Assembly: GCA_965371515.1 (NCBI GenBank)
Contig: CBDUYR010000002.1
Span: 50,203 to 114,202 of the forward strand
Reading direction: 5' to 3'
Source of the DNA: an uncultured bacterium
GTDB taxonomy: Bacteria > Krumholzibacteriota > Krumholzibacteriia > Krumholzibacteriales > Krumholzibacteriaceae
Length of the DNA stretch: 64,000 nt
The translations under genes were made by a program, and so were the position numbers. The notes beneath the pieces were generated by a model, which searched no databases, was not told where the DNA came from, and was given only the letters and a program-made list of their open reading frames with translations. Positions 5,697 to 31,998 of this stretch are shown here, piece by piece (the stretch's first letter is position 1; each line of letters starts with the position of its first letter).

Positions 5697-6647
5697 TTGA
5701 TCCGAATAAGGGAACTGTCAAAATATTACGGGATTACGAAGGCTGTGGATAACCTCTCCTTTACTGTCGAGAGAGGCGAAGTCCTCGGTTTTCTCGGGCC
5801 GAACGGCGCCGGCAAGACCACCACGATGAAAATACTCGCCTGCTACCTTCCCCCTTCTTCCGGTACGGCGGAGATCTTCGGATCCGACATACTGAATGAT
5901 TCGATGGCGGTAAGGAAGAGGATCGGCTACCTCCCCGAAAAGAATCCCCTCTACACCGACATGGACGTCCGCTCCTTCCTCGAGTTCGCTGCCCGCCTGA
6001 AGGGCGTGGAAAGAGAGTCGCTGAACGGTTCGGTGGGCGCAGTCATAGAGAGATGCGGGCTCGGGGAAGTGAGGCGCAGGAAGATCGGCAACCTCTCAAA
6101 GGGATTCCAGCAGAGGGTAGGAATCGCCCAGGCGATCGTGAACGATCCGGAGCTGCTGATCCTCGACGAGCCGACGATCGGCCTCGACCCGAGGCAGATA
6201 ATCGACATCAGAACGCTGATCAAGGAACTGGGCAGGGAGAGGACCGTCATACTCAGCTCACACATCCTCCCCGAGGTAAGCCAGGTCTGCGACAGGATAA
6301 TCATTATCAACAACGGACGTCTCGTGGCCGTCGATTCCCCGGACAACCTCCGCAACAGGCTCAAGAAATCCTCGATGACCAAGGTCCGCATTGCCGGATC
6401 AGCCGATCCGGCCGACACCGAACGTGTCATCCTGTCAGTCGAGGGGACGCGCATGATCCGGATCGAGGAACCGGGCGGAGACGGGTCCGCACTTATCACG
6501 GTCGAATCGTCTTCCGATTCCGATATCCGCAGCGCTCTCGCGAAAAGACTCGTCGAGGAGGATATACCCCTGCTCGAGATCTACAGCGAGGAACTCTCCC
6601 TGGAGGACATCTTCATCAGGCTCGTTACCGAGGAGGGCAACGCATGA
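5697..6647 (+). CDS. ABC transporter ATP-binding protein (GldA-like)
   Basis: Walker A GPNGAGKTT, ABC signature LSKGFQQRV, Walker B LLILDEPT. First gene of the four-gene GldA/GldF/GldG/DUF4340-type cassette. Confidence 0.9.
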   Translation: MIRIRELSKYYGITKAVDNLSFTVERGEVLGFLGPNGAGKTTTMKILACYLPPSSGTAEIFGSDILNDSMAVRKRIGYLPEKNPLYTDMDVRSFLEFAARLKGVERESLNGSVGAVIERCGLGEVRRRKIGNLSKGFQQRVGIAQAIVNDPELLILDEPTIGLDPRQIIDIRTLIKELGRERTVILSSHILPEVSQVCDRIIIINNGRLVAVDSPDNLRNRLKKSSMTKVRIAGSADPADTERVILSVEGTRMIRIEEPGGDGSALITVESSSDSDIRSALAKRLVEEDIPLLEIYSEELSLEDIFIRLVTEEGNA

Positions 6648-7414
6648 GCATAACCTCCGCGATATACGGCAGGGAACTGAGATACTTTTTCCAGTCGGTG
6701 ACAGCGTATGTGGTCATCTTTATGTTTCTGGTAGTGTCAGGCGGATTCTTCTACTTCATCTTCCGTGCCTACAACCTGATGTCCCTGCAGTCGTTGCAGA
6801 GCGCATTCGCGCCGGGGGGCCTGAACCTCATCGACGGAGTGATGCGGCCGCTGCTCGGCAACATCAGCATCATGATCCTGCTCTTCCTGCCCCTTCTCAC
6901 GATGAGACTGATGGCCGAGGAAAAGAAGCAGGGAACCTTCGAACTCCTCTCCACATACCCCGTCTCCGACATAGCCATCGTATCGGGCAAGTTTCTCGCG
7001 GCGCTGACTGTATACGCGATAATGCTCGGCTGCACTCTGCTGTATCCAGGGATGCTCTTCTTATACGCCGAACCGGAGATCGTACCCATCGTCACGGGAT
7101 ACCTCGGTCTTCTGCTCATGGGCACCGCTTTCATCGCAATCGGTACATTTTTTTCTTCACTTACCTCCAACCAGATCATCGCCGGCGTAGCCACCTTCAG
7201 CACTTTCCTCTTCTTTCTCCTGATCGGCTGGGGCGTCCCGTTTGTCGGACCGAAGTTCGCGGAGGTTCTCGCGCAGGTATCTATCCTCTATCATTTCGAA
7301 TCTTTCTCAAAGGGAGTGATCGAGACGAGCGACGTGACATACTATATCTTCCTCGCTGCCTTTTTCCTGTTTCTGACGGTGAGGTCTCTCGAATCAACCA
7401 GGTGGAAAAGCTGA
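6644..7414 (+). CDS. ABC-2 family permease (GldF-like)
   Basis: 256-aa polytopic protein. Its start overlaps the preceding stop (ATGA at 6644..6647). The N-terminal part of the annotated ORF 6053..7414 is a shadow inside the ATPase gene. Confidence 0.8.
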   Translation: MSITSAIYGRELRYFFQSVTAYVVIFMFLVVSGGFFYFIFRAYNLMSLQSLQSAFAPGGLNLIDGVMRPLLGNISIMILLFLPLLTMRLMAEEKKQGTFELLSTYPVSDIAIVSGKFLAALTVYAIMLGCTLLYPGMLFLYAEPEIVPIVTGYLGLLLMGTAFIAIGTFFSSLTSNQIIAGVATFSTFLFFLLIGWGVPFVGPKFAEVLAQVSILYHFESFSKGVIETSDVTYYIFLAAFFLFLTVRSLESTRWKS

Positions 7415-8964
7415 TGGGCAGCGTAATTTATAAAGTGCTCGGCGCTGCCGGTCTCGTCCTGATCGTCATCGGGGGAATAGTCTACGGGATCTTCTACACG
7501 AGCGGGTGGCCCGCCGTACTCCCCCTCGCCCTCGGCATTGTGCTGACCATAGGGGCTTTCGCCGGTGGATACCGTTCCGAAAGATCGGAAGGATCGAGAC
7601 GAACCGCCCGATACGGAATAAGCGCTGGCCTTTCCGCCATAACGGTGGCTGCTATCCTGATCTTCCTCCAGACACTGTCTTTCAGGCATACTTCTACGAT
7701 CGATCTTACGAGCAACCGGCGTTTTTCCCTCTCATCCCAGACAGAAAAGGTCCTCGGCGCACTTGAAACACCCGTGCACCTCACTGGATTCTACAAGGAG
7801 ACGAGCCAGGACAGGGTCGTGCTGCAGGACCTGCTCGAGAGTTATTCGGCGCGCAAACCGGCCGTGACATTTATCTTCATCGATCCCGACAAGTATCCAA
7901 CTAAAGCACGAGAGTATGGAGTCACAAAACCAGGCATACTATTCGTAGAAACCGGCGAGGCGCGTGAAGAACTCGAGAATCCTGACGAGCAGCGTTTGAC
8001 AAACGCAATCGCCAGGGTGACTTCCGGCAGTGTGAAGACGGTCTGCTTCCTCACCGGCCATGGGGAAAAGTCGGTTTTCGAGACGGGGCCCCACGGTATC
8101 AGCGGTCTGATGGAGGCGCTCCATATGGAAAATTTCGAGGTCCGTGACATCCTCGCTCTCAGCGCCGAGAAGATTCCGGAGGAGTGTGACATCCTCATCG
8201 CCGCCGGTCCTGAGAAGGACATAGTCAAGCATGAGCAGAATGTGATCCTCGACTACCTGGTCGGCGGCGGACGTGCCCTCTTCCTCGTCGATCCGATGAC
8301 CGAGATCACAAACATCGAGGGGATACTGGCAGCCTACGGAATAATTCTCGGCGACGACGTTATCGTAGACATGCAGGGAAAACTACTTGCGGGCAACTTT
8401 CTCACTCCTGTTGTGAACAGTTACGGCAAGCATCCGATAACCGACGGATTCCGGCATTTCACATTCTTCCCTCAGGCACGGTCTGTCATCGCGCTGGCGG
8501 ATACACCTCCATCTCTGGTGGTTACGGCCCTTTGCCGGACAAATGAAGGTACCTATTCCGAGACCGATATGTCGACCCTGCTCGAGGGCCAGACGCAGTA
8601 CGATCCCTCGGAGGACACCAAGGGGCCGATCGACATCGCCGTGGCCTCGGCCATGGGATTCAGCCCTGATTCCATGTCCACGGTCATTGAATCCCGCGTG
8701 GTCGTTTTCGGCGACAGCGATTTCGCCGGGAACTCCAACCTTCGTCTTTCGGGAAACAGGGATCTTCTACTCAATACGATCCTCTGGCTCGCCGAGGCGG
8801 AAGACATGATCTCGATCAGGCCGACCGACAACCTGCAGCAGCCCGTCCTGCTGACAGCTGCCCAGGGACGTTTCGTCTTCTGGATCCCGGTCGTTGCCCT
8901 TCCTGCACTGGTACTGCTCACCGGAGCGGCGATCCTCACGTGGAGAAAGAAAACCGTCCGGTAG
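7402..8964 (+). CDS. GldG-like ABC-type auxiliary component (ABC_transp_aux family)
   Basis: 520 aa, with TM helices at the N and C termini and a large extracytoplasmic domain. This is the typical third gene of the GldAFG cassette. Confidence 0.7.
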   Translation: MEKLMGSVIYKVLGAAGLVLIVIGGIVYGIFYTSGWPAVLPLALGIVLTIGAFAGGYRSERSEGSRRTARYGISAGLSAITVAAILIFLQTLSFRHTSTIDLTSNRRFSLSSQTEKVLGALETPVHLTGFYKETSQDRVVLQDLLESYSARKPAVTFIFIDPDKYPTKAREYGVTKPGILFVETGEAREELENPDEQRLTNAIARVTSGSVKTVCFLTGHGEKSVFETGPHGISGLMEALHMENFEVRDILALSAEKIPEECDILIAAGPEKDIVKHEQNVILDYLVGGGRALFLVDPMTEITNIEGILAAYGIILGDDVIVDMQGKLLAGNFLTPVVNSYGKHPITDGFRHFTFFPQARSVIALADTPPSLVVTALCRTNEGTYSETDMSTLLEGQTQYDPSEDTKGPIDIAVASAMGFSPDSMSTVIESRVVVFGDSDFAGNSNLRLSGNRDLLLNTILWLAEAEDMISIRPTDNLQQPVLLTAAQGRFVFWIPVVALPALVLLTGAAILTWRKKTVR

Positions 8965-8977
8965 TGGAGGTCCCGAT

Positions 8978-10300
8978 ATGAAGGGGCGCAGCCTCATCAT
9001 CCTGATCGCCGTTCTCGTCATTGTGGCCGGGTATTTCTTCCTCGTCGAGGAGAAGCAGCACCGGGACACTGCAGATGCGAAGAGGACCTCTCGAATGCTC
9101 CTGCCGTACGGCCCTCTCGACATCGATGCCGTCTCCTTTATCAATCCATACGGCGAGACGATAATGTGGGAAAGGGACGGCGAGGGATGGATGATAACAT
9201 TTCCCGTTACCGATATCGGCGAGAAGAGTACTATCGACATGTTCCTCGGCCAGATCGCTCCCGGGCGGAAGCTCGAGGAGTTTGCCGACGTGACCGACCT
9301 CTCCTCTTACGGGCTCGCTCCGCCTTACGCCACCGTCATCATCGAGAGCGAAAAGTACGGAAGGACCGATACCGTTCATGTTGGCGGGAAGACTCCCACA
9401 AGCTTCAGGTCATACGTGACTCTCGGATCGTCAGGGAATGTAGTGGTGACCCGCGAGCTCGCCCGCAACGTGATGCAGAAGAAGCTGTTTCACCTGAGGG
9501 ACAAGAACTTCATCGCCCCGGCCGACAGGAACATCACATCGTTTTCAATCGTCTCGGGCGGAAACCTTCTCGCCTTTCAGCGGTCGGGAAACTCCTGGAA
9601 GGTAGCCGGCTCGACGCTGACAGTCGACCGCAACGTCCTTGAACCCTGGGTTACCGGGCTGGCCTCCGCCCTTGTATACGAATTCGCCTCCGAGAACCTG
9701 GCCGACACCCTTCTGTTCGGGATAGGCGATCCTCACAGGTCAACCGTCCTCAATACCGCAAGCGGTGAATCGATCAGGATATCGTTCGGCAGGCGCAGGG
9801 ATTCCCTTGTTCCGGTCGTCAGGTCGGGGCGCAAAAATGTGATGATGATAAAGGCCGGATTCCTGGACGCGTTCCACTGGACGGACGACCGCCTCATCGT
9901 CATGAACCTCTCCCTCGTAAAACCGGGAGAGGTCGGCGCCCTCCAGTGGGAGACCCCCGATACCATCGCCTCGTGGAGTATGGAGGACGGCGTATGGATG
10001 ACGCGTGGGGACGACCCCACCCCCGTCGACCAGGAAGCCTTGAAGTATCTGCTGATGTATCTTCGATCGGCGACCTTCGAAAGTCTCGTGACAGACCGAG
10101 AACTCGTATCCGCGGCGAAACCGGACATCATGATCACCCTTGGAGACAGGTCAGGCGAGGTGTTCGACATCATATCGCTATACCGTTTCGAGGACGGGAC
10201 TGCCGGGGGCATTTCGCTTTCTGGCGGAAACGCCGGCCATATCAGCGAGGGAACGCTTGCGGAGATCCACCGGGCATATTCGGCGATTATCATCCGTTAG
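8978..10300 (+). CDS. DUF4340 domain protein (usual partner of GldG-like proteins)
   Basis: 441 aa from ATG 8978, with an N-terminal TM anchor (LIILIAVLVIVAGYFF). Gene order matches the conserved GldG-DUF4340 pairing. Confidence 0.6.
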   Translation: MKGRSLIILIAVLVIVAGYFFLVEEKQHRDTADAKRTSRMLLPYGPLDIDAVSFINPYGETIMWERDGEGWMITFPVTDIGEKSTIDMFLGQIAPGRKLEEFADVTDLSSYGLAPPYATVIIESEKYGRTDTVHVGGKTPTSFRSYVTLGSSGNVVVTRELARNVMQKKLFHLRDKNFIAPADRNITSFSIVSGGNLLAFQRSGNSWKVAGSTLTVDRNVLEPWVTGLASALVYEFASENLADTLLFGIGDPHRSTVLNTASGESIRISFGRRRDSLVPVVRSGRKNVMMIKAGFLDAFHWTDDRLIVMNLSLVKPGEVGALQWETPDTIASWSMEDGVWMTRGDDPTPVDQEALKYLLMYLRSATFESLVTDRELVSAAKPDIMITLGDRSGEVFDIISLYRFEDGTAGGISLSGGNAGHISEGTLAEIHRAYSAIIIR

Positions 10301-10351: not shown

Positions 10352-11482
10352 GTGATGAACGATTCTCAGGCAACGATATCGAGAAGGGATTTTCTTTCCT
10401 GCACGGCGGGAATGATAGCGGCTGGCGCCGCTCTTGGAGGTGCGGCATTCGCCGATGACGGCGGGCCGCATCCGGCTCGGTACTGGGAAAAGCTCGAGGA
10501 CGGCCGCGTCCGCTGCACTCTCTGCCCCCATCGATGTACGATCTCCGACGGCAGGCGGGGCGCATGTAGAGTCAGAGAGAATCGCGGCGGGGTCCTCTAT
10601 TCCCTCTCGTGGGGAAGGCCGTGCGCCCTTCACATCGATCCGATCGAGAAGAAGCCGTTCTACCATTTCCTGCCCGGCTCCATCTCCCTCTCGATGTCGA
10701 CGGTGGGATGCAACATGACATGCCGTTTCTGCCAGAACTGGCAGATCTCGCAATCATCTCCCGAGGACATCGATACCGAGAGTGTGAGTCCGGGATTCTT
10801 CGCGAAAAAAGCCACAAAATCGGGCGCTTCTTCCATAGCATTCACCTACGGGGAGCCGGTCGTCTTCATCGAGTACGCGATGGATATTGCGGCGGCCGCC
10901 AGGGAATCAGGCGTAAAGAGCGTGGTCGTCACCAACGGATATATCGAGCAGGAGCCACTAGCCGATCTCTGTTCATCGGTCGACGCGATCAAGGTCGATC
11001 TCAAGGCCTTCGAGGACGGATACTACAGGAAGATATGCGGTGCCGGGCTCGACCCCGTTCTGCGCTCCCTCGTGGAGATCAGATCCCGTGGCGTATGGCT
11101 CGAGATCGTCTACCTTATGATTCCGACGCTCAACGACAACGCGGAGACGATCGGCAGGATGGCCGCCTGGATAGAGGCCGAACTCGGGCCTGACGTTCCG
11201 GTCCATTTCTCGAGGTTCCATCCCGCCTACCGCCTTCCGGACCTCCCTCCGACACCCGTCTCTTCGCTCGACGCGGCAAGGGCAAGATGTCTCGACGCCG
11301 GATTGAACTACGTCTATATCGGCAACGTAGCCGGTCACGAGGGCGGCTCGACATTCTGCCGTTCATGCTCGAATAAGATTATTGACAGGTCCGGGTACAC
11401 AATACTTTCCATCGAGATGGACGGAGACAAATGCCGGTTCTGCGGGACCGCCCAGCCCGGAGTGTGGAGGAAAGATTCATGA
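10352..11482 (+). CDS. AmmeMemoRadiSam system radical SAM enzyme (PFL-AE-like) with an N-terminal twin-arginine (Tat) signal peptide
   Basis: Radical SAM CX3CX2C motif CNMTCRFCQNW. Overall similarity to the PFL-activase-like AmmeMemoSam radical SAM family. N-terminus SRRDFLSCTAGMIAAGAALGGAAFA-DD is a canonical Tat signal with an AxA cleavage site. Confidence 0.8.
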   Translation: MMNDSQATISRRDFLSCTAGMIAAGAALGGAAFADDGGPHPARYWEKLEDGRVRCTLCPHRCTISDGRRGACRVRENRGGVLYSLSWGRPCALHIDPIEKKPFYHFLPGSISLSMSTVGCNMTCRFCQNWQISQSSPEDIDTESVSPGFFAKKATKSGASSIAFTYGEPVVFIEYAMDIAAAARESGVKSVVVTNGYIEQEPLADLCSSVDAIKVDLKAFEDGYYRKICGAGLDPVLRSLVEIRSRGVWLEIVYLMIPTLNDNAETIGRMAAWIEAELGPDVPVHFSRFHPAYRLPDLPPTPVSSLDAARARCLDAGLNYVYIGNVAGHEGGSTFCRSCSNKIIDRSGYTILSIEMDGDKCRFCGTAQPGVWRKDS

Positions 11483-12990
11483 GGATACGCGTGGCTACCG
11501 GAGGGCTGATATTTATACTGATCCTTGCTGCGGCCGGTACTGATATTGCCGGCCTGAAAGGAAGCGATATGGTTAAATCGATCAGAAAACCGGCCGTTGC
11601 CGGACAGTTCTATTCTTCAGAACCGGAAGCGCTCCGCAGGGAGATAGAGAAATACATCGGCGAGGCCGATCCACCGGCCCTGGAGGACGACATATTCGCC
11701 CTCATATCTCCTCACGCCGGATACGTGTATTCGGGGCATGTAGCTGCATGGGGCTATTCGCTCCTCGATGAGGGGAGTTTCGAGACCGTCGTAATCATCT
11801 CTCCCTGCCATGTCGATTACTTCCGTTTCGCCTCGATCTACGACGGCGACGCCTACGAGACTCCGCTCGGCCTTGTGGAGATCGATAAAGAGCTCTCTGA
11901 GGAGATCGCTTCGCGCAGCGACCTCGTGAGGATCGGCCCGGACGGACATGGTACGGGGTCCCGCGGAAGGGGCGAGCACTCGCTCGAGGTGCAGATCCCC
12001 TTCCTGCAGGTCGCCCTGGGGGATTTCAGGATCGTGCCGATAGTGATGGGTGACCAGTCCGCCGATGTAGTGCAAGGCCTGGGAGAAGCGCTCTCAGGGG
12101 CACTCGAGGGCCGCAACGTACTGATCGTCGCCAGTACCGATCTATCCCATTTCCATGACGACGCCTCGGCAAGGAAGCTCGACGGCGAGTTCATAGAGAA
12201 ACTCGAGGCTTTCGACGCCGGAGGCCTCATGCACTCGATCGATGCGGGAAAGACCGAGGCGTGCGGCGGCGGACCATCGGCGGCGGCGATGATAGCCTCT
12301 GCCAGTCTCGGCGGCAGAGACTGCAAGGTACTGCAATACGCCAATTCCGGTGACGTCTCTGGTGACAGGGGAAGTGTCGTCGGTTACGTCTCCGCCGTCA
12401 TCACGGGAATCCGCGGTAAAAGCGACGGTGACGACGTCGACAGGGAGACGAGGATATTCCTCCTGCGTTACGCCAGGTCGGTCATCCGCAAGAATCTCGG
12501 CATGGAGACAGAGGAGATCGAGAGACCTGACTCGCCCCTCCTCATGGAGAAGCGCGGAGGATTCGTCACTCTCAAGAAGAACGGCAGGCTCAGGGGCTGC
12601 ATCGGATATATCGAGGCTGTCAAACCTCTTCTCGATACGGTCGGCGAGATGGCTTACTCGGCGGCATTCAGCGACCACAGGTTCGACCAGGTCAGGAAGG
12701 AAGAGGTCGACGACCTGGCGATCGAGATATCGGTACTCAGCCCGGTGCGCGAGACAACGGACCCTTCGGAAATCGAAGTCGGGAGGCATGGGATCATAAT
12801 ATCGGCAGGAGGGCGGCGGGGGCTCCTCCTTCCCCAGGTGGCGGTCGAATACGGCTGGGACAGGGACACGTTTCTCGACCAGACGTGCGTCAAGGCCGGT
12901 CTCTCTCCCGGCGCCTGGAAGGATGCCGGTACCACTATAGAGATTTTCAGCGCCGAGATATTCTCCGAAAAGGAGATGGGATTACGTTGA
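11479..12990 (+). CDS. Fused AmmeMemoRadiSam system protein B (Memo-like) and protein A (AMMECR1 domain), with an N-terminal signal peptide or anchor
   Basis: The start ATG at 11479 overlaps the radical SAM stop (ATGA). N-terminal hydrophobic segment MRIRVATGGLIFILILAAAG. Then the Memo N-terminus (IRKPAVAGQFYSSEPEAL ... ISPHAGYVYSG). The C-terminal ~190 aa carry the AMMECR1 motif (GGFVTLKKNGRLRGCIGYIE). Confidence 0.8.
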   Translation: MRIRVATGGLIFILILAAAGTDIAGLKGSDMVKSIRKPAVAGQFYSSEPEALRREIEKYIGEADPPALEDDIFALISPHAGYVYSGHVAAWGYSLLDEGSFETVVIISPCHVDYFRFASIYDGDAYETPLGLVEIDKELSEEIASRSDLVRIGPDGHGTGSRGRGEHSLEVQIPFLQVALGDFRIVPIVMGDQSADVVQGLGEALSGALEGRNVLIVASTDLSHFHDDASARKLDGEFIEKLEAFDAGGLMHSIDAGKTEACGGGPSAAAMIASASLGGRDCKVLQYANSGDVSGDRGSVVGYVSAVITGIRGKSDGDDVDRETRIFLLRYARSVIRKNLGMETEEIERPDSPLLMEKRGGFVTLKKNGRLRGCIGYIEAVKPLLDTVGEMAYSAAFSDHRFDQVRKEEVDDLAIEISVLSPVRETTDPSEIEVGRHGIIISAGGRRGLLLPQVAVEYGWDRDTFLDQTCVKAGLSPGAWKDAGTTIEIFSAEIFSEKEMGLR

Positions 12991-12999
12991 GGTTGACGG

Positions 13000-15198
13000 T
13001 CAGGCGCGGCCCGTAGCGATCTTTCGTGTAAGTATCAGGGCCGCCGCGCAGTGTATCGAAGCGGCCGTCGCGGCCGTCCACGCAAGCCCAGAAAGAGGCA
13101 GCAGCAGGGTTCCGGCAATCAGCCCTCCGGCGCACGCACCGAACATGTCCCACGAATAGAACAGTGCGGGAGGCGCGGCCGCTTCCGCTGGCCATGCCGT
13201 CTCGACGACTGTCCTGTAATAGAATCCCGTCAGCAGTCCGCCCGCTGTCGACAGGGCCGTGAATCCTGCAGTCCCCATCAGATGCCCGCTCCCCGCACCG
13301 GCCTGAAGCCGGAGCCAGACAGGGACAAGGAGTGCCGTCACTGCCATCAGGATATGGCAGACAGCCAGCCTGGAAACTCCCTTCCCCTTCCGTCGTCCGC
13401 CGGCATATGCCCCGAGAGCGGCTCCCGCCATGAACAGGGAGGTCAGCAGCACGAGCGTGTGGTAGAGTATCCCCGAGAACGACTGGTAGGCAAGCATCAC
13501 TGACAGCTGAACCGTCATGCTGCACAGCCCCGTCAGGAACACCGCTGTTTTAGCCGCGGCACCACCCCTCACCAGTATCCCTGTAAGTATGGCGGCGGCA
13601 AGGATCACCGACGGCAGCACCCAGGATGGAAGATCCAGAATGGTTTCGAGAAACCTCACTGTCGCCGTTCCCGACTTCCAGCCGCGCAGTACCAGTTCAA
13701 AAGGCACCAGGACAGGATGTATGTCTGTGTTCAACCGTCGCGGCGCATCGGCCAGCGCGGAAGAGAGGTACTCTCTTCTCTCCTCCGAGATCCTGTAGGG
13801 CAGTTCGTCGAGTGCGAGAAGGCGCCCTCCGAGACCTCTCTCCACGAGTCTTCCCGGGATATCTCCCGAGTCGACCGGGCTGTCTGACGCGATGAAGAAA
13901 ACAGTCCCGCCCGGCACAATGTCGACATATTCGAATGCCGAACTGAGAGTCTCCTCGATTATTTTCAGCACAGCGGCATTCCTGGCGGAGAGGAAGTTCT
14001 CGGAGGATCCGTGCCGCACTGTCAGGATCCCCCCGGCAGAGAGGCTGTTCCGCGCAGACTCGAAGAATTCCGCGGTGAAATATCTGTTCCACCTGAGATT
14101 GATGGGCTCGGGGACGTTGACAATGATTACATCGTACGGTCCCGAGCCGCGGATCAGGAAACGGCCGTCACCCTTCAGGCCCCTTGCGCCAGGTGGTTTT
14201 CTCTCATCTCCGACAGCCCTGCCTACAGCCCCGGACAGCTGCCCGTCGAGTTCGACCCAGTCGACCCTCTCGATGCCGGGATGGCTCAGCGCCTCTTTTA
14301 GCCCTCTCCCCGGCCCTCCGCCGATCATCAGGATATCAACAGGCGCGTCATGAGCCAGCAGCGGTATATGGACCCCTTCACCAGCTCTCTCCATATCCGG
14401 ATAACTGAGAAGCCTCGCTCCTCCGGAGAAGACCGATACGGTCTCCCTGTCCCTCGTCACGCACAGCTCCGCATACCTCGATGGAACGACCTCGACTACC
14501 TCGTACCCCTTGAAAACGATCGACAGACTCGCACTGTCGAGATAAGGCGCCGCCAGGATCCCCGCCACCGCAAACGAGAGTGCTATCGCCCATACCGCGC
14601 GCCTTCCCTTCATGGAAGTAGAGAGGAAGACAGCCGTCACCAGCGCCGACACGCAGAACGACGCCTCGAGCTGTGTGAGAAATGCGAAGAAGAGGATGGA
14701 GAGGAGTACACCACCTACGATCGAGCCGGCCGCTTCCATTATGTAGGCCGAAGAGATACCGGCGGAGATCCCCTCTCGGGGATCCTTCATCACCGCGCTC
14801 GCGGAGTTGTAGACCGCGCCGTACAGAAGCCCGAAAGGAGCGGTAGCAACGAGGATGAATCCCGCGGCGGGGAGGATATCGGGAATGGAACCCGGCGGAT
14901 CGACGAGCACGCTCCTGCCCAGCCGTATCATCAGAACGATGAGGGGAACGGAAAAAGCGAGTGAGAGCGAGAGTCCGCCGAACGCTTTTTCGATGCTCGC
15001 GGAACCTGGCCGTAGGATCCGTCCACCGAGAAGGCCGCCGGCCCCGATCCAGAAGAGCCACGAGGAAAGCGCCAGTCCCAGTACCAGCTCAGTGCCCGTC
15101 ACGACCCCGAGCAGCTCTCTTATAAAAAGTGTCTGCGCGCAGACGGCGCATGCCCCTAGTACAATGACTCTTGCTCGTCTGTGATTCCTGTCTCTCAT
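13000..15198 (-). CDS. Polytopic membrane protein with a central spermidine synthase-like (PABS/aminopropyltransferase) domain flanked by two related TM blocks
   Basis: 732 aa. The central domain has MIGGGPGRGLKE ... VIIVNVPEP, a PABS-type SAM-dependent fold. The N-terminal and C-terminal TM regions resemble each other (LGACAVCAQTLF...GAGGLLGGR versus LTGLCSMTVQLS...GAALGAYAGGR). Confidence 0.65.
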   Translation of the reverse strand: MRDRNHRRARVIVLGACAVCAQTLFIRELLGVVTGTELVLGLALSSWLFWIGAGGLLGGRILRPGSASIEKAFGGLSLSLAFSVPLIVLMIRLGRSVLVDPPGSIPDILPAAGFILVATAPFGLLYGAVYNSASAVMKDPREGISAGISSAYIMEAAGSIVGGVLLSILFFAFLTQLEASFCVSALVTAVFLSTSMKGRRAVWAIALSFAVAGILAAPYLDSASLSIVFKGYEVVEVVPSRYAELCVTRDRETVSVFSGGARLLSYPDMERAGEGVHIPLLAHDAPVDILMIGGGPGRGLKEALSHPGIERVDWVELDGQLSGAVGRAVGDERKPPGARGLKGDGRFLIRGSGPYDVIIVNVPEPINLRWNRYFTAEFFESARNSLSAGGILTVRHGSSENFLSARNAAVLKIIEETLSSAFEYVDIVPGGTVFFIASDSPVDSGDIPGRLVERGLGGRLLALDELPYRISEERREYLSSALADAPRRLNTDIHPVLVPFELVLRGWKSGTATVRFLETILDLPSWVLPSVILAAAILTGILVRGGAAAKTAVFLTGLCSMTVQLSVMLAYQSFSGILYHTLVLLTSLFMAGAALGAYAGGRRKGKGVSRLAVCHILMAVTALLVPVWLRLQAGAGSGHLMGTAGFTALSTAGGLLTGFYYRTVVETAWPAEAAAPPALFYSWDMFGACAGGLIAGTLLLPLSGLAWTAATAASIHCAAALILTRKIATGRA

Positions 15199-15662
15199 GT
15201 CAGGGAGCGCTGATCGTCGAAATAATCTTCCTCGAACACCTTCTTGAAATCGAAGACATCGTCAAATTCCTCTATTGAATCCTCTTCGCTGCTTTCCAGC
15301 AGATTTGCGGCTATCAGGCCAAAGACGATGTTTCCTATGTCCCTCGTCGTATAGATTCCCCAGTGGTTGAGCACTTCTTTCGCCATCGGTCCGAACTGCC
15401 TCGAGGAGATCACCGTCAGCCCCTCGAGCAGCTCCTCGCCGGAAATATGCCTGTCGACGTGAAGCATCTTTATCGTGGCTTCGACTCCGGACAGCACAAA
15501 GCGCCAGGCGTACTTTTCGTATCTGCCGTCGGCGCTCGCAGCATCATCGACCTCCCGCCACCTGTCGGAATCGTGTCTCAATCCCCCGCCCCTTCCCTGT
15601 GCCCGTATGTAGTTGCCGGCCCCCTGCCGGACCCCCTTCTCAGTATCGTCCCGTGTTCCCAT
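15195..15662 (-). CDS. Small acidic hypothetical protein; the true start is probably internal
   Basis: The ORF overlaps the nadB 3' end by 85 nt, so a later start (e.g. Met at ~15464) is more likely. The acidic C-terminus EEDSIEEFDDVFDFKKVFEEDYFDD stands out. Its stop overlaps the start of the downstream membrane gene (ATGA-type coupling). Confidence 0.35.
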   Translation of the reverse strand: MGTRDDTEKGVRQGAGNYIRAQGRGGGLRHDSDRWREVDDAASADGRYEKYAWRFVLSGVEATIKMLHVDRHISGEELLEGLTVISSRQFGPMAKEVLNHWGIYTTRDIGNIVFGLIAANLLESSEEDSIEEFDDVFDFKKVFEEDYFDDQRSLT

Positions 15663-22850: not shown

Positions 22851-24185
22851 CTATCTCTTCACTATTGTGGACGAAAGATCAGCCTCTGCCACAACGTTGC
22901 CGTTGACATATGCCTTGCCCCTCATCTTGCAGAAATTCCTCTTCAGCGACAGCATTTCGAGCTCGAACCTCAGCTGATCCCCTGGAAGGACCGGCTTTCG
23001 GAACTTCGCCCTGTCGATCTTCGCGAAGTAGACCAGATAATTCTCCGGATTTTTAACGCTGGAGAGAAGGAGTATTCCCCCGACCTGCGCCATCGCCTCG
23101 ATGATGAGGACCGCAGGCATGATCGGGTGTCCGGGGAAGTGCCCGACAAAGAAGGGCTCATTTATCGTCACGTTCTTGATCCCGACCACACGCTTGTTGT
23201 CCTCGAGCTCGATTATCCTGTCAACGAGGAGGAAGGGATACCTGTGGGGCATTATGTCCATGATCGTGTTTATATCCCAATGCCCGGCGCCGGGTCCCAA
23301 GGCGGATCGCTGCTTGTCCTTCATGTCCTGCGCAAGTAGCTTCGCAAAGGGCAGGTTATAATTGTGTCCCGACCTGATCGCGATGATATGCCCCTCTATC
23401 GGAGCACCTGCAAGTGTGAGATCACCTATGATGTCGAGTATCTTGTGCCTTACGAACTCGTCAGGGAAACGGAGCGGGCCCTCGTTCATGATCCCGTTCT
23501 CGTCGACAACGACGGCGTTGTCCAGGCTGCCTCCCTTTATGAGCCCCTCCTTGCGGAGCATCTCGACATCCGACATCAGGGCGAAGGTCCTGGAAGGGGC
23601 GATTTCCGAAGCGAATGTATCGGAATCTATATCGAGGGAAAAGTACTGCGTGCCGATGAACTCGCTTTCGTACTCGATCGTATAGCTCACCCTGAATCCA
23701 TCGTATGGCAGGGCCATAAGCTCCACATCGTCCTTGTAATACGAAACCGGCGTGGTGATCTTGAGGTATTTTACCGGAACGCCCTGGTTCTCTGTTCCGG
23801 CGGCCTTTATCGATTCGACAAGTTCAATTACGCTGCCGTCGGCGGGCTCAGGCGGCTCATCTGCATCGATGTCGATCACGAGGTTGTCGACCTGCATGCC
23901 CGATGCGGCGGCGAGGATATGCTCTACCGTGTGGATCTGGGTGCCGTCCCTCGCCAGCGTAGTATTCCTCTTCACCTCGCCCGGAGCGATATACTCCGCC
24001 CTCGCGGGAATTTCGACGACAGGATCGAGATCGATCCGCCTGAATACGATCCCTGTCCCGACGGGAGCCGGTTTGAACACGGTATGGACCTTCGCCCCCG
24101 TGTGTATGCCGATACCCTGGAATGTAAACTGTTTCTTAATCGTCCTCTGCTGCCGGACCACTTCCCTTTCCTTTCTCCAGAGCAT
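22851..24185 (-). CDS. lpxC/fabZ: Bifunctional UDP-3-O-acyl-GlcNAc deacetylase / 3-hydroxyacyl-ACP dehydratase (LpxC-FabZ fusion)
   Basis: The N-terminal half is LpxC ([18 protein letters not shown] ... HTVEHILAA). The C-terminal ~150 aa is the FabZ hotdog fold ([13 protein letters not shown] ... [13 protein letters not shown]). The start is uncertain, because the annotated ORF overlaps the lpxD 3' end. Confidence 0.85.
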
Positions 24186-25197
24186 CCACCCTGTTCTGCA
24201 GGTTGCGGAATTCTTTGAGGAGATCGGGCAGACGTGCGGTAGCAGCGCAGATCTTGCGGGCAAACGAATGTTCGCGGGCGGGATATCCCGAAACGCTGGT
24301 CCCGGACGGAATGCTCTTGGTGACGCCTCCCTGGGCGCCCACGCTCACTCCGTCGCCGATCTTTATATGACCGACAAGCCCTGCCTGTCCCGCCAGGACC
24401 ACGTTCTTTCCCAGCTCGGTGCTGCCGGAGATCCCTGCCTGGGCTGCAATCACCGAGTTTTCGCCGATTACGACGTTATGAGCTATCTGCACGAGGTTAT
24501 CCAGCTTCGAACCGCGCCCGACAAGTGTTACTCCCATTGTGGCCCTGTCTATCGTAGTATTGGCGCCGATCTCCACATCTTCCTCGATTCTTACGATCCC
24601 GATCTGCGGTATCTTGTGATGTTCCGTCCCGTCGCTTGCGTATCCGAATCCGTCGCTGCCTATCACCGCTCCCGAATGGATTATCACCCTGTTCCCGATC
24701 TCACACTTCTCCCTGATCGTCACGTGGGGATAGATAAGGCAGTCGTTCCCGATCTTTACTCCTTCGTTGATGCACGCGAGCGGGAGGATCGTAGTCCGGT
24801 CGCCGATGCGGACGTTATCCTCGAGGACAACATACGCCCCGATCGATATCTCCTTGCCGAGCTTCACGCTGTCAGGGATTATCGCGGTAGGGTCCACCTC
24901 GCGGCTGTACTTCTCGAGCGGGGTCTCGGAGAAGAGCCTCACGACCTTGAGAAAGGCCAGATAAGGATTTTCAATACTGATGATGGCCCCGTCGAAACTG
25001 CCGTTTCCGCCCGCGGCGATCACGGCCGACGCGTTTGTCGACGCGAGATACGTCTCGTATTTCGGATTCGCGAGAAATGTGATCTCGCCGGGGACGGCCT
25101 CCCTGATGCCGGCGACTCCCCGGATCTCTACAGATCCGTCGCCGACAACCTTGCCTCCGACTATCCCGGCGATCTTTTCTATACTGTAATAAGGCAT
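24136..25197 (-). CDS. lpxD: UDP-3-O-(3-hydroxyacyl)glucosamine N-acyltransferase
   Basis: LpxD N-terminal domain followed by long hexapeptide-repeat beta-helix. 353 aa. Confidence 0.9.
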
Positions 25198-30897: not shown

Positions 30898-30936
30898 TTG
30901 CCCCGCTCTTCCTTTCCCCAGGTGGACCCGGCGCCG

Positions 30937-31998
30937 TCAGGACGCCTTCAGTCTCGACCTGATGTAATCAGCTCTGCTCCTGTCCCTGTCGTCCGGTCCC
31001 ATGACCTTTTCGTAGAGCATCTGGAGATGCATCGGCTGGATCATAATCAGCATCTCGTTGAGATCGGACAGGCCCGTGTCGGTGACGATCCCGAGCCCAA
31101 CGCCGAGACGGACTGCCGAGAGAAGCCCCATCGCTTCCCTGGAATCGAGCATCCTCGCATTCCTCAGGAGACCGTAGGCCCTCCAGATCTTATCTTCGAG
31201 CAAACTCCGTGCCTCTTTGAGAAGGGTCTCACGTGCTTTTTTCTCGAATTCGAGTACTTTTCGTATATGTGAATCCATATTCTTCACTGTATCAGACTCT
31301 GACAGTCCGAGAGTAATCGAGTTCGATATCTGAAAGAAATTGCCTGCCGCTTCGCCTCCCTCCCCATAACCGCCCCTTACACTTAGCCTTACGTGCTTGA
31401 GTCCGTCCGAGACCTGCCTGATGTCACCGTTCTGTACCAGTCCAGGGAGGTGGACCATCACCGAGACCCGCAGCCCGGTCCCGACATTGGTGGCGCAGGC
31501 CGTCAGATATCCGAAATGGTCGGAAAATGCAAATTCAAGGCTTCCGTCAAGCTCATCGTCGAGACGGCTCACGCTCTCGAACGCCGCGCTCAGCGCCAGT
31601 CCCGACTCGAAAGACTGGAGCCTGAGATGATCCTCCTCGTTTACCATAACGCTGAGCTTCTCGCTCCTGACGACCGCCAGGCCGCGGTTGTTGAATTTCC
31701 TCACCATATCCTGCGATACGAGCCTTCTCTCCGCGAGGATCATGCGCTCCGGCTCGGCCGTATCGTTCATGTCGAGGAATATCGAGCCCTTCATCGATGG
31801 TGCAAGCGCGAGCGCGTCCCTTACCTCGTCGCGGACCGAGGCGAGCTCAGATGCCTCCGCGCAGTTAGTGAATGTCCTTCCATCGATGTTGCGTGCCAGC
31901 CTCAAGCGTGTGGCAAGGACGAGCTCGCTCTCCTCGCCTCCCTCGGTCAGCCAGGACGCGGGGTTCTTGAGAAGCATATGCAGCTGCTTCTGTTTCAA
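30937..31998 (-). CDS. mcsB: Protein-arginine kinase McsB (ATP:guanido phosphotransferase family)
   Basis: 353 aa with McsB-like motifs (EEDHLRLQ ... CATNVGTGLR). Translationally coupled to mcsA. Confidence 0.85.
   Translation of the reverse strand: MKQKQLHMLLKNPASWLTEGGEESELVLATRLRLARNIDGRTFTNCAEASELASVRDEVRDALALAPSMKGSIFLDMNDTAEPERMILAERRLVSQDMVRKFNNRGLAVVRSEKLSVMVNEEDHLRLQSFESGLALSAAFESVSRLDDELDGSLEFAFSDHFGYLTACATNVGTGLRVSVMVHLPGLVQNGDIRQVSDGLKHVRLSVRGGYGEGGEAAGNFFQISNSITLGLSESDTVKNMDSHIRKVLEFEKKARETLLKEARSLLEDKIWRAYGLLRNARMLDSREAMGLLSAVRLGVGLGIVTDTGLSDLNEMLIMIQPMHLQMLYEKVMGPDDRDRSRADYIRSRLKAS

Follow-up and report, generated by a model that had tools for sequence, protein, structure and literature searches.

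A candidate envelope-located variant of the AmmeMemoRadiSam system in a diderm bacterium

Genes and domains at the locus

The DNA analyzed here (the window) is a stretch of 64 kb, in which a radical SAM gene, a Memo-AMMECR1 fusion gene and a gene for a membrane protein lie side by side. Their features are as follows.

10355-11482, + strand: gene for a radical SAM enzyme of the AmmeMemoRadiSam type with a PFL-activase-like core, 375 aa (TIGR04337, PF04055, AF2 model)
10355-10453, + strand: predicted Tat signal peptide, radical SAM residues 1-33, with a likely signal peptidase I site, AFA-DD; outside the TIGR04337 model
10379-10396, + strand: SRRDFL twin-arginine motif, residues 9-14; R10, R11 and F13 invariant
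10709-10732, + strand: CNMTCRFC, the CX3CX2C motif for the radical SAM [4Fe-4S] cluster, residues 119-126
11479-12990, + strand: Memo-AMMECR1 fusion gene, 503 aa (TIGR04336, TIGR04335, PF01875, PF01871)
11479-11553, + strand: predicted signal peptide (Sec type) or anchor at the start of the fusion, MRIR / VATGGLIFILILAAAG / TDIAG; outside the family model
11557-11571, + strand: conserved internal ATG of the fusion (Met31, 11569-11571) after AAAGGAAG, a possible second start
11584-12402, + strand: Memo domain, residues 36-308, with SPHAGY, EHSLE, TDLSHF and ACGGG motifs
12460-12963, + strand: AMMECR1 domain, residues 328-495, with an LRGCIG motif
13000-15198, - strand: conserved partner gene, tail-to-tail with the fusion gene, for a membrane protein of 732 aa with an MFS fold into which a spermidine-synthase-like domain is inserted
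13639-14502, - strand: soluble domain of the partner resembling spermidine synthase, about residues 233-520, with a predicted periplasmic orientation (Foldseek, topology)

The radical SAM open reading frame runs from 10352 (GTG) or 10355 (ATG) to 11482 on the + strand, and the protein begins MNDSQATISRRDFLSCTAGMIAAGAALGGAAFADDGG. The NCBIfam model TIGR04337 (AmmeMemoSam_rS) gave it 407.4 bits (cutoff 220), with residues 41-373 aligned to model positions 1-335 of 349, and PF04055 gave 64.9 bits. Since the TIGR04337 model begins at residue 41, residues 1-40 are extra. The three cysteines of the CX3CX2C motif (C119, C123 and C126) are invariant among 41 homologues. The AlphaFold2 model had a pLDDT of 88.4, with values below 50 for residues 1-8 and 17-33 and mostly above 90 from about residue 41, and its best PDB match was PFL-AE (3cb8; TM-score on target 0.80, E 1.7e-13). 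No glycyl-radical enzyme was found in the neighborhood of the gene. The radical SAM gene is associated with both Memo and AMMECR1, as the next gene holds both domains, and this arrangement also occurs in close relatives.

The fusion gene starts at an ATG (11479) within an ATGA that contains the radical SAM stop codon, and its product begins MRIRVATGGLIFILILAAAG. Both halves scored well above their family cutoffs, with 279.5 bits for Memo (TIGR04336, cutoff 26) and 185.5 bits for AMMECR1 (TIGR04335, cutoff 99); the Pfam scores were 213 bits for PF01875 and 190 bits for PF01871. PDB relatives of the fusion are MEMO1 (3bcz, 7kq8) and PH0010 (1vaj). The original prediction had described a radical SAM enzyme with CNMTCRFC and a twin-arginine N-terminus, followed by a translationally coupled Memo-AMMECR1 fusion with an N-terminal hydrophobic signal or anchor. 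Both were found where it had placed them, the latter on the ATGA overlap and the TIGR04336 and TIGR04335 matches, and the family HMMs, with all three components above cutoff, bore out its claim of a complete AmmeMemoRadiSam set.

The third gene (13000-15198) lies outside the coordinates of the original prediction. Its product carries a spermidine synthase Pfam domain, with the corresponding overall fold, together with a twelve-helix MFS fold. Foldseek matched the soluble domain to 1uir, 3anx and 3o4f (TM-score on target 0.64-0.72), and the protein did not reach the equivalog scores of TIGR00417 (55.4 vs 249.55) or PRK03612 (91.1 vs 472). Residues G293, G298, E316, D318, D344 and G345 are nearly invariant. 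The family consensus reads N.P.P at the place of D..DP in SpeE, and we take the catalytic DxxD of SpeE to be replaced (N361, E364), the equivalence of positions being a reading of motifs and not a structure-based alignment. In a topology derived by hand, the soluble domain is bracketed by two hydrophobic helices (202-228 and 527-542) that come on top of the 12-helix MFS core, the positive-inside rule fits, and the SpeE-like domain is predicted to face outward. In a fused relative (L088), eight membrane segments, an even number, separate the SpeE-like domain from an FMN_bind domain. The SpeE-like gene of the window is convergent with the radical SAM operon and not co-transcribed with it. Of the 80 related loci, 32 have a gene for a SpeE-like membrane protein next door; such a gene also follows an FMN_bind-radical SAM fusion in L084. 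In four relatives (P0431 and P0433-P0435) a NapH-like (Fer4_5) module is joined to the SpeE-like protein itself, and three of them have FMN_bind as well.

Export signals in the locus and its relatives

Signals in this locus and its relatives were judged from sequence, homologue comparison and profile HMMs and are predictions only; all of the compared sequences come from metagenome assemblies. In the radical SAM enzyme, SRRDFLS agrees with the Tat consensus S/T-R-R-x-F-L-K at six of seven positions. The motif is followed by an h-region of mild mean hydropathy (1.53, vs 2.33 for the h-region of the adjoining fusion's Sec-type signal) and by AFA-DD, which was read by eye and, by the -3/-1 rule, is presumably the cleavage site. 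Of the window's 292 open frames with 100 aa or more, only 2 contained a relaxed Tat-like pattern with a hydrophobic stretch behind it, and the second of these was antisense and matched poorly. R10, R11 and F13 are invariant across the 41 aligned homologues (52-84% identity), among which conservation is 42% in the rest of the signal and 71% in the mature part. The enzyme did not reach the thresholds of the curated Tat HMMs (PF10518, 15.4 against 22.7; TIGR01409, 12.8 against 16.7; PF10399, 20.1 against 24). The only families that matched its N-terminus were Tat-signal models and a related Tat-target model, TIGR02811, all below cutoff, and a precomputed PF10518 match is present in four homologues.

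By inspection, the N-terminus of the fusion has the positive n-region, hydrophobic h-region (10-16 residues) and polar c-region expected of a Sec signal; the signal contains no Cys, and no lipobox was found in it. The ATG of Met31 follows a purine-rich, Shine-Dalgarno-like motif (AAGGA, AAGG, GAGG or GGAG) both here and at six related loci, and Met31 is absent in other phyla. An internal start at Met31 could give a signal-less, cytoplasmic Memo-AMMECR1 isoform in this lineage.

In the orthologue survey, Tat signals were the norm for this section of the family: 107 of the 120 closest radical SAM homologues have the RR motif, as do about 65 of 80 species-level relatives, which represent at least 15 phyla; in eight others the N-terminus is of the Sec or TM type. 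A downstream start that would remove the RR motif was looked for among the homologues, and none is conserved, Met20 included. A hydrophobic N-terminus equivalent to that of the fusion is found in 96 of 120 fusion homologues, and all 44 assessable neighboring Memo(-AMMECR1) genes encode a signal or a lipobox (lipobox-like in 12, from other lineages). The Tat motif is missing from the canonical radical SAM enzymes of 325-350 aa. Of the 150 best cluster representatives, 86 lack an extension, about 36 carry a Tat signal and 10 show a hydrophobic N-terminus. A neighbor-joining distance tree built on 228 core sequences places about 95 canonical enzymes without a signal in a single block, and the remainder of the tree is made up of signal-bearing enzymes. 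The export signals of radical SAM relatives thus follow phylogeny, and the signal-bearing enzymes are a separate group. Six relatives (Nitrospirota loci L052, L060, L066, L067 and L072, and the L088 operon) pair a signal-less radical SAM enzyme with an apparently exported, often lipobox-bearing Memo-AMMECR1 protein, which indicates that the three proteins need not share one side of the membrane.

Fusion proteins bear on the side of the membrane that the radical SAM domain occupies. In two relatives (P0262 and P0274), one N-terminal TM is followed by an FMN_bind domain with an SGAT flavinylation motif and then by the radical SAM domain, with no TM between. Flavinylated FMN_bind domains of the SGAT type are extracytosolic (PMC8238504). 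In three others (P0249, P0272 and L071) the entire triad follows a single N-terminal signal or TM; 13 signal-less three-domain fusions provide the cytoplasmic contrast. These fusions support an extracytoplasmic position of the radical SAM domain in such relatives. A further 11 relatives combine a Tat signal with an insert that has an invariant CxxCH and a second His. The redox modules fused or adjacent to relatives are FMN_bind, NapH-like (Fer4_5), DsbD_2 and a Tat-signal DUF362 protein; no genes for any of these four were found within the 64-kb window.

The window also encodes LpxA, LpxB, LpxC and LpxK (lipid A), BamA and a FadL-like protein. The host is diderm and hence has a real periplasm. 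The original prediction that the triad is exported is supported by this comparison, that is, by the RR motif in the enzyme's homologues, the signals of the fusion homologues and neighboring Memo genes, the fusions and the diderm host. With signals on all parts here and in relatives from at least 15 phyla, the chemistry of the triad probably takes place at the cell envelope. Based on these observations, we think it reasonably likely that the locus encodes an envelope-located variant of the AmmeMemoRadiSam system.

Proposed mechanism and alternative explanations

In the mechanism that we propose, the radical SAM enzyme would fold and gain its [4Fe-4S] cluster in the cytoplasm and then cross the membrane by Tat, and Memo-AMMECR1 would cross unfolded via Sec. 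The three proteins would act jointly on the outer side of the inner membrane, on a target that is embedded in the membrane or belongs to the envelope (for example a lipid, an isoprenoid or a lipid-linked intermediate), and electrons would be supplied by extracytoplasmic carriers of the kind that are built in or adjacent in relatives. Speculating from fold and topology only, the MFS part of the partner might move SAM or a related adenosyl compound outward, where it might reach both the partner's own outward nucleotide-binding domain and the radical SAM enzyme. It is possible, although we regard it as doubtful, that radical SAM chemistry here is truly extracytoplasmic, with the partner exporting and holding SAM or a related adenosyl sulfonium, the Tat-exported enzyme using it with envelope electrons, and Memo-AMMECR1 finishing the modification of a lipid, an isoprenoid or a lipid-linked intermediate of the envelope. 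We know of no SAM source outside the cytoplasm and of no radical SAM enzyme shown to work there. If true, it would mark the first case of a radical SAM pathway outside the cytoplasm and the first physical setting for identifying the substrate of the Memo/AMMECR1 pair. No description of an exported AmmeMemoRadiSam variant was found in the searchable literature, which did not extend to the main Memo-context analysis (Burroughs et al. 2019).

Alternatively, the proteins may arrive on the outer side of the inner membrane and keep their signals uncleaved as N-terminal anchors, as with the Rieske Tat signal, so that they would be tethered and not soluble. The best profile on the radical SAM N-terminus is indeed the Rieske Tat-anchor PF10399 (20.1 bits, below cutoff), TM-like N-termini with no obvious cleavage site occur in five relatives (L038, L041, L049, P0249 and P0262), and the conserved partner is itself embedded in the membrane. 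In the fusion, the c-region AAAG-TDIAG is a weaker peptidase site than the AxA of other lineages. Nevertheless, AFA-DD and its counterpart in close homologues (V/A/I-F/L-A, then acidic residues) fit the -3/-1 rule well, and the AxA sites or lipoboxes of many Memo-AMMECR1 partners point to processing; we therefore consider uncleaved anchors unlikely. Another explanation would place the radical step in the cytoplasm or limit it to one event: SAM could be bound and the enzyme reduced before export, with a single turnover on a partner to follow, or the target could be modified before or during export. Either way, the enzyme could do without SAM from an outside pool. The nearest characterized relative, pyruvate formate-lyase activase, converts one SAM into one long-lived protein radical, and Tat substrates are folded, cofactor-loaded proteins. 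Lineages that combine a cytoplasmic radical SAM enzyme with an exported Memo-AMMECR1 show, moreover, that the radical step is possible inside. This account is quite unlikely in our estimation, as the FMN_bind, NapH-like and DsbD_2 fusions and the CxxCH insert suggest a continuing electron supply at or across the membrane, and the partner bears a second adenosyl-binding fold, predicted to lie outside.

The twin-arginine motif could also be a remnant or an assembly tag, comparable to the vestigial Tat motif of NarG, with the enzyme remaining cytoplasmic at the membrane and Memo-AMMECR1 also made without a signal from its internal start. Such a role would accord with the sub-threshold Tat HMM scores, with the conserved internal Met and its upstream Shine-Dalgarno-like motif, and with the signal-less radical SAM enzymes that Nitrospirota pair with an exported partner. 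It is made highly improbable by the complete n-h-c architecture and peptidase site around the motif and by its retention in at least 15 phyla, where relatives that lack it substitute Sec signals or TM anchors and not nothing. The triple and FMN_bind fusions, moreover, put the radical SAM domain after a single N-terminal signal, and the internal Met of the fusion is missing outside this lineage. That both signals are artefacts of start-codon choice, with true starts at Met20 of the radical SAM frame (ATG 10412) and Met31 of the fusion frame (ATG 11569), is scarcely credible. Some gene callers do begin fusion homologues at the internal Met (13 of 120 start a few residues from the domain), and a few radical SAM homologues are annotated with no signal. 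Yet in over 100 homologues of each protein the upstream region is an open, in-frame stretch that looks like a signal; R10, R11 and F13 are invariant where Met20 is not conserved, and in other phyla the Memo-AMMECR1 protein has no internal Met.

Comparison with known systems

All domains of the canonical AmmeMemoRadiSam system (TIGR04335, A, AMMECR1; TIGR04336, B, Memo; TIGR04337, radical SAM) are present here above cutoff. As in that system, the genes are adjacent and translationally coupled, and the CX3CX2C, SPHAGY and LRGCIG motifs are intact. The canonical forms, which normally act within the cell, are enzymes of 325-350 aa with no N-terminal extension, or signal-less triple fusions. In contrast, every component here bears a predicted signal, Memo and AMMECR1 are fused, and there is an extra conserved neighbor, the membrane MFS-SpeE-like protein.

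PflA (3c8f/3cb8) is both the nearest solved structure and the nearest characterized sequence relative of the radical SAM enzyme, with which it has in common a partial TIM-barrel core and the cluster motif. The two are only about 16% identical, PflA is cytoplasmic, and the enzyme described here has extra N- and C-terminal Cys-rich segments. It also scored below the glycyl-radical activase models TIGR02493 (61.6 vs 231.75 bits) and TIGR02494 (57.9 vs 174.35 bits). With Tat-exported Fe-S proteins (hydrogenase small subunits, DmsB-type proteins and Rieske proteins) it shares an Fe-S cluster motif and a signal of the S/T-R-R-x-F-L type, which is expected on an Fe-S protein that is folded and cofactor-loaded before export. 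Those proteins transfer electrons, whereas this enzyme is of a class whose members use up SAM, which is a metabolite of the cytoplasm.

The extracytosolic, ApbE-flavinylated FMN_bind, NapH-like and DsbD systems use the same modules (SGAT or TGAT, Fer4_5 and DsbD_2) that join relatives of the enzyme and its partner. The survey of such systems by Meheust et al. 2021 (PMC8238504) makes no mention of radical SAM, Memo or AMMECR1. Unlike the flavinylated electron-transfer systems in that survey, the window analyzed here contains no such modules.

Radical SAM chemistry is likewise tied to an exported product in anaerobic sulfatase maturase, QhpD and the HXS system. In these three, as far as is known, the signal is on the substrate and the radical SAM enzyme stays inside, whereas here the predicted signal is on the radical SAM enzyme itself. 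In the HXS system, an effector active in the periplasm is matured by a radical SAM enzyme (PMC13128918).

Finally, the partner resembles membrane-bound spermidine synthases (PRK03612-like, PF01564) in its SpeE fold, nucleotide-binding glycine loop, acidic residues and polytopic architecture, and NCBI names one partner homologue 'fused MFS/spermidine synthase'. It differs from them in that its domain lies between the MFS halves, where two extra helices would place it outside, and in its genomic linkage to a radical SAM enzyme that is probably exported.

Predicted export signals of the two coupled proteins

The original prediction described a radical SAM gene with a Tat-like N-terminus, correctly in every detail, and a coupled downstream gene for a Memo-AMMECR1 fusion behind a hydrophobic N-terminal signal, which also holds. 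Searches with the family HMMs confirmed all three AmmeMemoRadiSam components (TIGR04337, TIGR04336 and TIGR04335). The genes discussed here are as follows:

5697-10300, + strand: ABC ATPase, ABC-2 permease, GldG-like auxiliary protein (TIGR03521, below cutoff) and DUF4340 protein, directly upstream
10355-11482, + strand: radical SAM enzyme, 375 aa (TIGR04337 profile match), with a GTG one codon 5′ at 10352
11479-12990, + strand: Memo-AMMECR1 fusion, whose start ATG lies inside the ATGA holding the radical SAM stop codon
Residues 36-308 of the fusion, + strand: Memo domain (TIGR04336)
Residues 328-495 of the fusion, + strand: AMMECR1 domain (TIGR04335)
13000-15198, - strand: MFS-SpeE-like partner, convergent with the operon; the window's member of a family of 700-800 aa proteins

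The radical SAM protein scored 407.4 bits against TIGR04337 in an NCBIfam profile search (cutoff 220), with its cluster motif CNMTCRFC intact; pyruvate formate-lyase (PFL) activase models scored far lower, well under their own cutoffs. The match starts at residue 41, and the 40 extra N-terminal residues, MNDSQATISRRDFLSCTAGMIAAGAALGGAAFADDGGPHP, were matched solely by Tat-signal or Tat-target models. Their SRRDFLS agrees with the Tat consensus at six of seven positions. After it come a mildly hydrophobic segment with a mean hydropathy of 1.53 and then AFA-DD, a likely cleavage site judged by hand. Scores of the curated Tat profiles were below threshold (PF10518, 15.4 vs 22.7; TIGR01409, 12.8 vs 16.7), as was that of the Rieske Tat-anchor model PF10399 (20.1 vs a cutoff of 24). 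Of the open frames in the window that are 100 aa or longer, 292 in total, 2 show a relaxed Tat-like pattern with a hydrophobic stretch after it; the second is a poor match in an antisense frame. An RR motif and, after it, a hydrophobic region are present in 107 of the 120 closest homologues, whose identities range from 54 to 98%; the remainder appear truncated or called from too late a start. R10, R11 and F13 are invariant across 41 aligned homologues, while conservation is 42% in the remainder of the signal versus 71% in the mature enzyme. Fixed R10, R11 and F13 within an otherwise variable segment is the pattern of a putative signal peptide selected for its properties, not its sequence. In the AlphaFold2 model, the mature part has a mean pLDDT of 88.4, and residues 1-8 and 17-33 fall below 50.

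The fusion preserves both the Memo motifs and LRGCIG of AMMECR1, and its extra N-terminus, MRIRVATGGLIFILILAAAGTDIAGLKGSDM, lies outside the family models. A short basic n-region precedes an h-region with a hydropathy of 2.33, compared with 1.53 in the radical SAM signal; such a basic n-region and strongly hydrophobic h-region is as would be expected for a Sec signal. A hydrophobic N-terminus was found in 96 of the 120 closest fusion homologues, commonly with an AxA-like site at its end, and another 13 were merely called from a conserved internal Met.

An artefact of start-codon choice would offer another explanation for the upstream signals, and some gene callers do begin the fusion protein at Met31. 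This explanation was rejected: more than 100 homologues of each gene keep the upstream signal, and the radical SAM gene has no conserved internal start that would remove its RR motif. The internal ATG of the fusion gene (Met31, position 11569 in the region 11557-11571) lies at the start of the Memo domain and is preceded by the purine-rich AAAGGAAG; in six related loci AAGGA, AAGG, GAGG or GGAG stands ahead of the equivalent ATG. Met31 is conserved in the Krumholzibacteria lineage and missing in other phyla. It could serve as a second start that yields a signal-less cytoplasmic isoform of the fusion, or could merely reflect conserved K-G codons.

Distribution and phylogeny of the signals

The Tat signal of the radical SAM partner recurs among its orthologues. 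A species-level scan using one genome per species gave 80 loci, for which upstream frames were re-read and twelve borderline cases were inspected by eye; all sequences are metagenome assemblies. The loci come from Krumholzibacteriia (by source names, the group of the window itself), Zixibacteria, KSB1, Omnitrophota, Poribacteria, Calditrichota, anammox and other Planctomycetota, Anaerolineae, Acidobacteriota, Aminicenantes, Eisenbacteria, Latescibacterota, Thermodesulfobacteriota, Elusimicrobiota, Nitrospirota and Bacteroidota. The signal-bearing radical SAM enzymes form a group that is coherent in phylogeny and spans at least 15 phyla, mostly anaerobic.

Table. N-terminus of the radical SAM enzyme in the 80 species-level loci
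Twin-arginine signal: about 65 of 80 (one an RK variant)
Sec or TM-type: 8 of 80 (one a Memo-AMMECR1-radical SAM triple fusion)
None: 5 of 80 (all Nitrospirota)
N-terminus runs off the contig: 2 of 80

In half of the loci (40/80), a Memo gene is found no more than 6 kb from the radical SAM gene, and this Memo is almost always fused to AMMECR1. Wherever the N-terminus of such a neighbour is on the contig (44 assessable proteins, counted by eye), it carries an N-terminal signal, and 12 of the 44 have a lipobox-like motif by inspection. In a real extracytoplasmic system, a protein that bears a cofactor is expected to travel by Tat and one that lacks a cofactor by Sec or the lipoprotein route. The predicted Tat signals on the radical SAM enzymes, combined with Sec signals or lipoboxes on Memo-AMMECR1, are the pattern expected of such a system.

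A search with the radical SAM core only against 1.84 billion cluster representatives returned 1639 clusters at E ≤ 1e-30. The best 150 of these comprise 86 canonical enzymes (325-350 aa, no extension), about 36 with Tat signals, 10 with hydrophobic N-termini, and longer fusions. In a rough neighbour-joining distance tree of 228 cores, interpreted from leaf order only, the signal-less enzymes form one contiguous block and the signal-bearers make up the remainder. The five signal-less Nitrospirota sequences nest among the signal-bearers, which suggests that they lost the signal secondarily. Four contigs of canonical signal-less enzymes were short or archaeal and held no Memo or AMMECR1 neighbours, and triple fusions among the cluster representatives were used as the signal-less control in their place. 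On an archaeal-looking contig (L087:1176-3473), the gene directly upstream of a canonical signal-less family member encodes an archaeal-type SAM synthetase (PF01941). Thirteen triple-domain fusions of 900-1150 aa lack a hydrophobic N-terminus. In contrast, one N-terminal signal or TM precedes all three domains in two cluster representatives (P0249, P0272) and locus L071, and these proteins have no other membrane segment.

Fusions to envelope modules and the MFS-SpeE-like partner

Representatives closely related to the radical SAM core were scanned for fusion architectures by Pfam and hydropathy. P0262 and P0274 consist of one N-terminal membrane segment, an FMN_bind domain with an SGAT flavinylation motif and the radical SAM domain. 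Behind a signal, FMN_bind domains are electron carriers outside the cytosol and receive their flavin from ApbE (PMC8238504). Since no membrane segment separates FMN_bind from the radical SAM domain in these two proteins, the latter should also lie on the outer side. NapH-like Fer4_5 membrane modules are added to the radical SAM core in P0254, P0260 and P0292, and a DsbD_2 membrane domain stands at the start of P0248, P0277 and P0292. The protein encoded at L084:3207-6352 belongs to these relatives fused to or preceded by FMN_bind, NapH-like or DsbD_2 modules. We also observed a signal and a beta-propeller (P0244) or a signal and a carbohydrate-binding-like domain (P0250) ahead of the radical SAM domain.

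In 11 loci from Anaerolineae, Acidobacteriota, Calditrichota and others (L015, L018, L044, L045, L046, L051, L061, L069, L073, L076, L079), as well as in P0243, a Tat signal is combined with an insert of about 30 residues that follows the signal and precedes the radical SAM core's first Cys-rich motif. The insert contains an invariant CxxCH and a second conserved His; these columns of the alignment are real sequence, and the final invariant Cys column is to be ignored, as the last 1-4 residues of four sequences were hand-padded. The insert looks like a c-type heme site, CxxCH plus His being a signature of covalent heme attachment. Such attachment happens only outside the cytoplasm, and a c-type heme site on a Tat substrate would itself be unusual.

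Besides Memo-AMMECR1, the most frequent neighbour in ORF clustering of the 80 loci is the 700-800 aa MFS-SpeE-like protein, present in 32 of them and in 18 of the 37 loci whose flanks reach 4 kb or more on each side. It contains a spermidine synthase domain (PF01564) that scores far under equivalog cutoffs. By our reading of the equivalences to SpeE, the family has kept nearly invariant both the glycine loop and the acidic residues with which SpeE holds the adenosyl moiety, and N.P.P replaces the catalytic DxxD segment. An MFS core comprises twelve helices, and each of its halves begins on the cytoplasmic side. The partner has two more, at 202-228 and 527-542, which are hydrophobic throughout and flank the SpeE-like domain, and all strongly basic loops fall on the same side as the N- and C-termini (topology assigned by hand); together, these features put the SpeE-like domain outside in the predicted topology. 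At L088, the partner continues into FMN_bind (TGAT) and into a NapH-like module; the CX3CP motifs of the latter must lie in the cytoplasm. With eight membrane segments counted back from this FMN_bind domain, the SpeE-like domain again falls on the outside. Four cluster representatives of the partner (P0431, P0433-P0435) are themselves fused to a Fer4_5 module, three of them also to FMN_bind, and at L084 the FMN_bind-radical SAM fusion is followed by a partner homologue (25% identical across the full length, E 3e-17). In the window, a 155-aa ORF with no Pfam match (15195-15662, - strand) lies between the partner and L-aspartate oxidase genes; its end overlaps the start of the partner gene, and in the near-identical contig L083 the gene call gives 128 aa.

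A DUF362 protein (PF04015) of about 330 aa is encoded directly upstream of the Tat-signal radical SAM gene in 20 of the 80 loci (L005, L007, L008, L010, L011, L023, L025, L026, L029, L032 and 10 more), and most of these proteins carry their own twin-arginine signal. The window contains no DUF362 gene and no FMN_bind, NapH-like or DsbD_2 match that would mark an electron donor or flavinylation gene. The ABC, GldG-like and DUF4340 genes upstream were considered as part of the system and rejected: their synteny is confined to close Krumholzibacteria relatives (L081-L083), and few of the 80 wider loci contain them.

A candidate envelope pathway and its relation to known systems

The window also encodes LpxK, LpxB, LpxA, an LpxC-FabZ fusion, BamA and a FadL-like protein, so the organism has an outer membrane and a periplasm. 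The LpxC ORF (22854-24263, - strand) includes a FabA/FabZ-like dehydratase domain. It shares a lipid A cluster with the genes for LpxA, a GFO/IDH-family oxidoreductase, LpxB and LpxK, at a distance of 3-11 kb from the radical SAM/Memo locus. At 28432-31998 (- strand), a ClpC-like AAA+ protein with a UVR motif adjoins an ATP:guanido phosphotransferase (McsB-like protein arginine kinase), a pair best known from Firmicutes, whereas the window organism is a diderm. No tRNA or Rfam match was found in the window, and around the locus promoter-like and terminator-like sites do not exceed their frequency in shuffled sequence.

Our analysis shows the membership in three families, the conserved export signals, the conserved linkage to the MFS-SpeE-like protein and the recurrent fusions of this group to envelope electron-transfer modules. 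In the pathway we propose, the radical SAM enzyme would have its cluster loaded in the cytoplasm and then be exported by Tat, with Memo-AMMECR1 probably exported by Sec. At the inner membrane's outer face, the system would act on a substrate that is embedded in the membrane or belongs to the envelope, with reduction presumably supplied by extracytoplasmic carriers. More speculatively, the MFS part of the partner might deliver SAM or a related compound to the outside. Against this pathway speak the convergent partner gene, which is not co-transcribed here, and the lack of an identifiable electron donor in the window. Six relatives also bear on it, in which a signal-less radical SAM enzyme of 324-326 aa stands beside the MFS-SpeE-like protein and an exported-type Memo-AMMECR1 with a signal peptide. 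Five are Nitrospirota loci (L052, L060, L066, L067, L072), where that signal peptide has a lipobox. The sixth is the L088 operon (L088:7001-13877), with an 82-aa ORF between the MFS-SpeE-like/FMN_bind/NapH-like fusion and the radical SAM gene. These relatives indicate that the three proteins need not share one side of the membrane; if we assume a membrane-spanning pathway or a flipping substrate, they would be reconciled with the proposed pathway.

To our knowledge, radical SAM enzymes are regarded as strictly confined to the cytoplasm, since they depend on SAM and on a low-potential electron. The signal-bearing group and its fusions to flavin, heme-type and thiol envelope modules argue for an exception to this rule, one that would surprise specialists in radical SAM enzymology. 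They raise a concrete question, the route by which SAM and electrons reach the membrane's outer face, to which the conserved MFS-SpeE-like neighbour is a testable answer. Memo and AMMECR1 have links to human disease, and the search for their substrate is narrowed and made more tractable: since all players of this variant are predicted to lie at the membrane or, in diderms, in the periplasm, an envelope or membrane-embedded target is indicated, not a cytoplasmic nucleotide or protein. Burroughs et al. 2019 (JBC) reportedly tied Memo contexts to the modification of nucleotide bases and of aliphatic isoprenoids, and the membrane setting fits the latter better.

In the full-text literature searched, we found no description of a Tat-exported or periplasmic radical SAM enzyme of any family, or of signals on Memo or AMMECR1. 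A survey of extracytosolic flavinylated systems makes no mention of radical SAM, Memo or AMMECR1 (PMC8238504). The variant with export signals appears undescribed in that literature; databases may already mark these Tat signals through automatic annotation. The radical SAM core is closest to PFL activase, both by sequence and by predicted structure. By curated family criteria, the locus is a member of AmmeMemoRadiSam; it differs from every described member in its location signals, its Memo-AMMECR1 fusion and its membrane partner.
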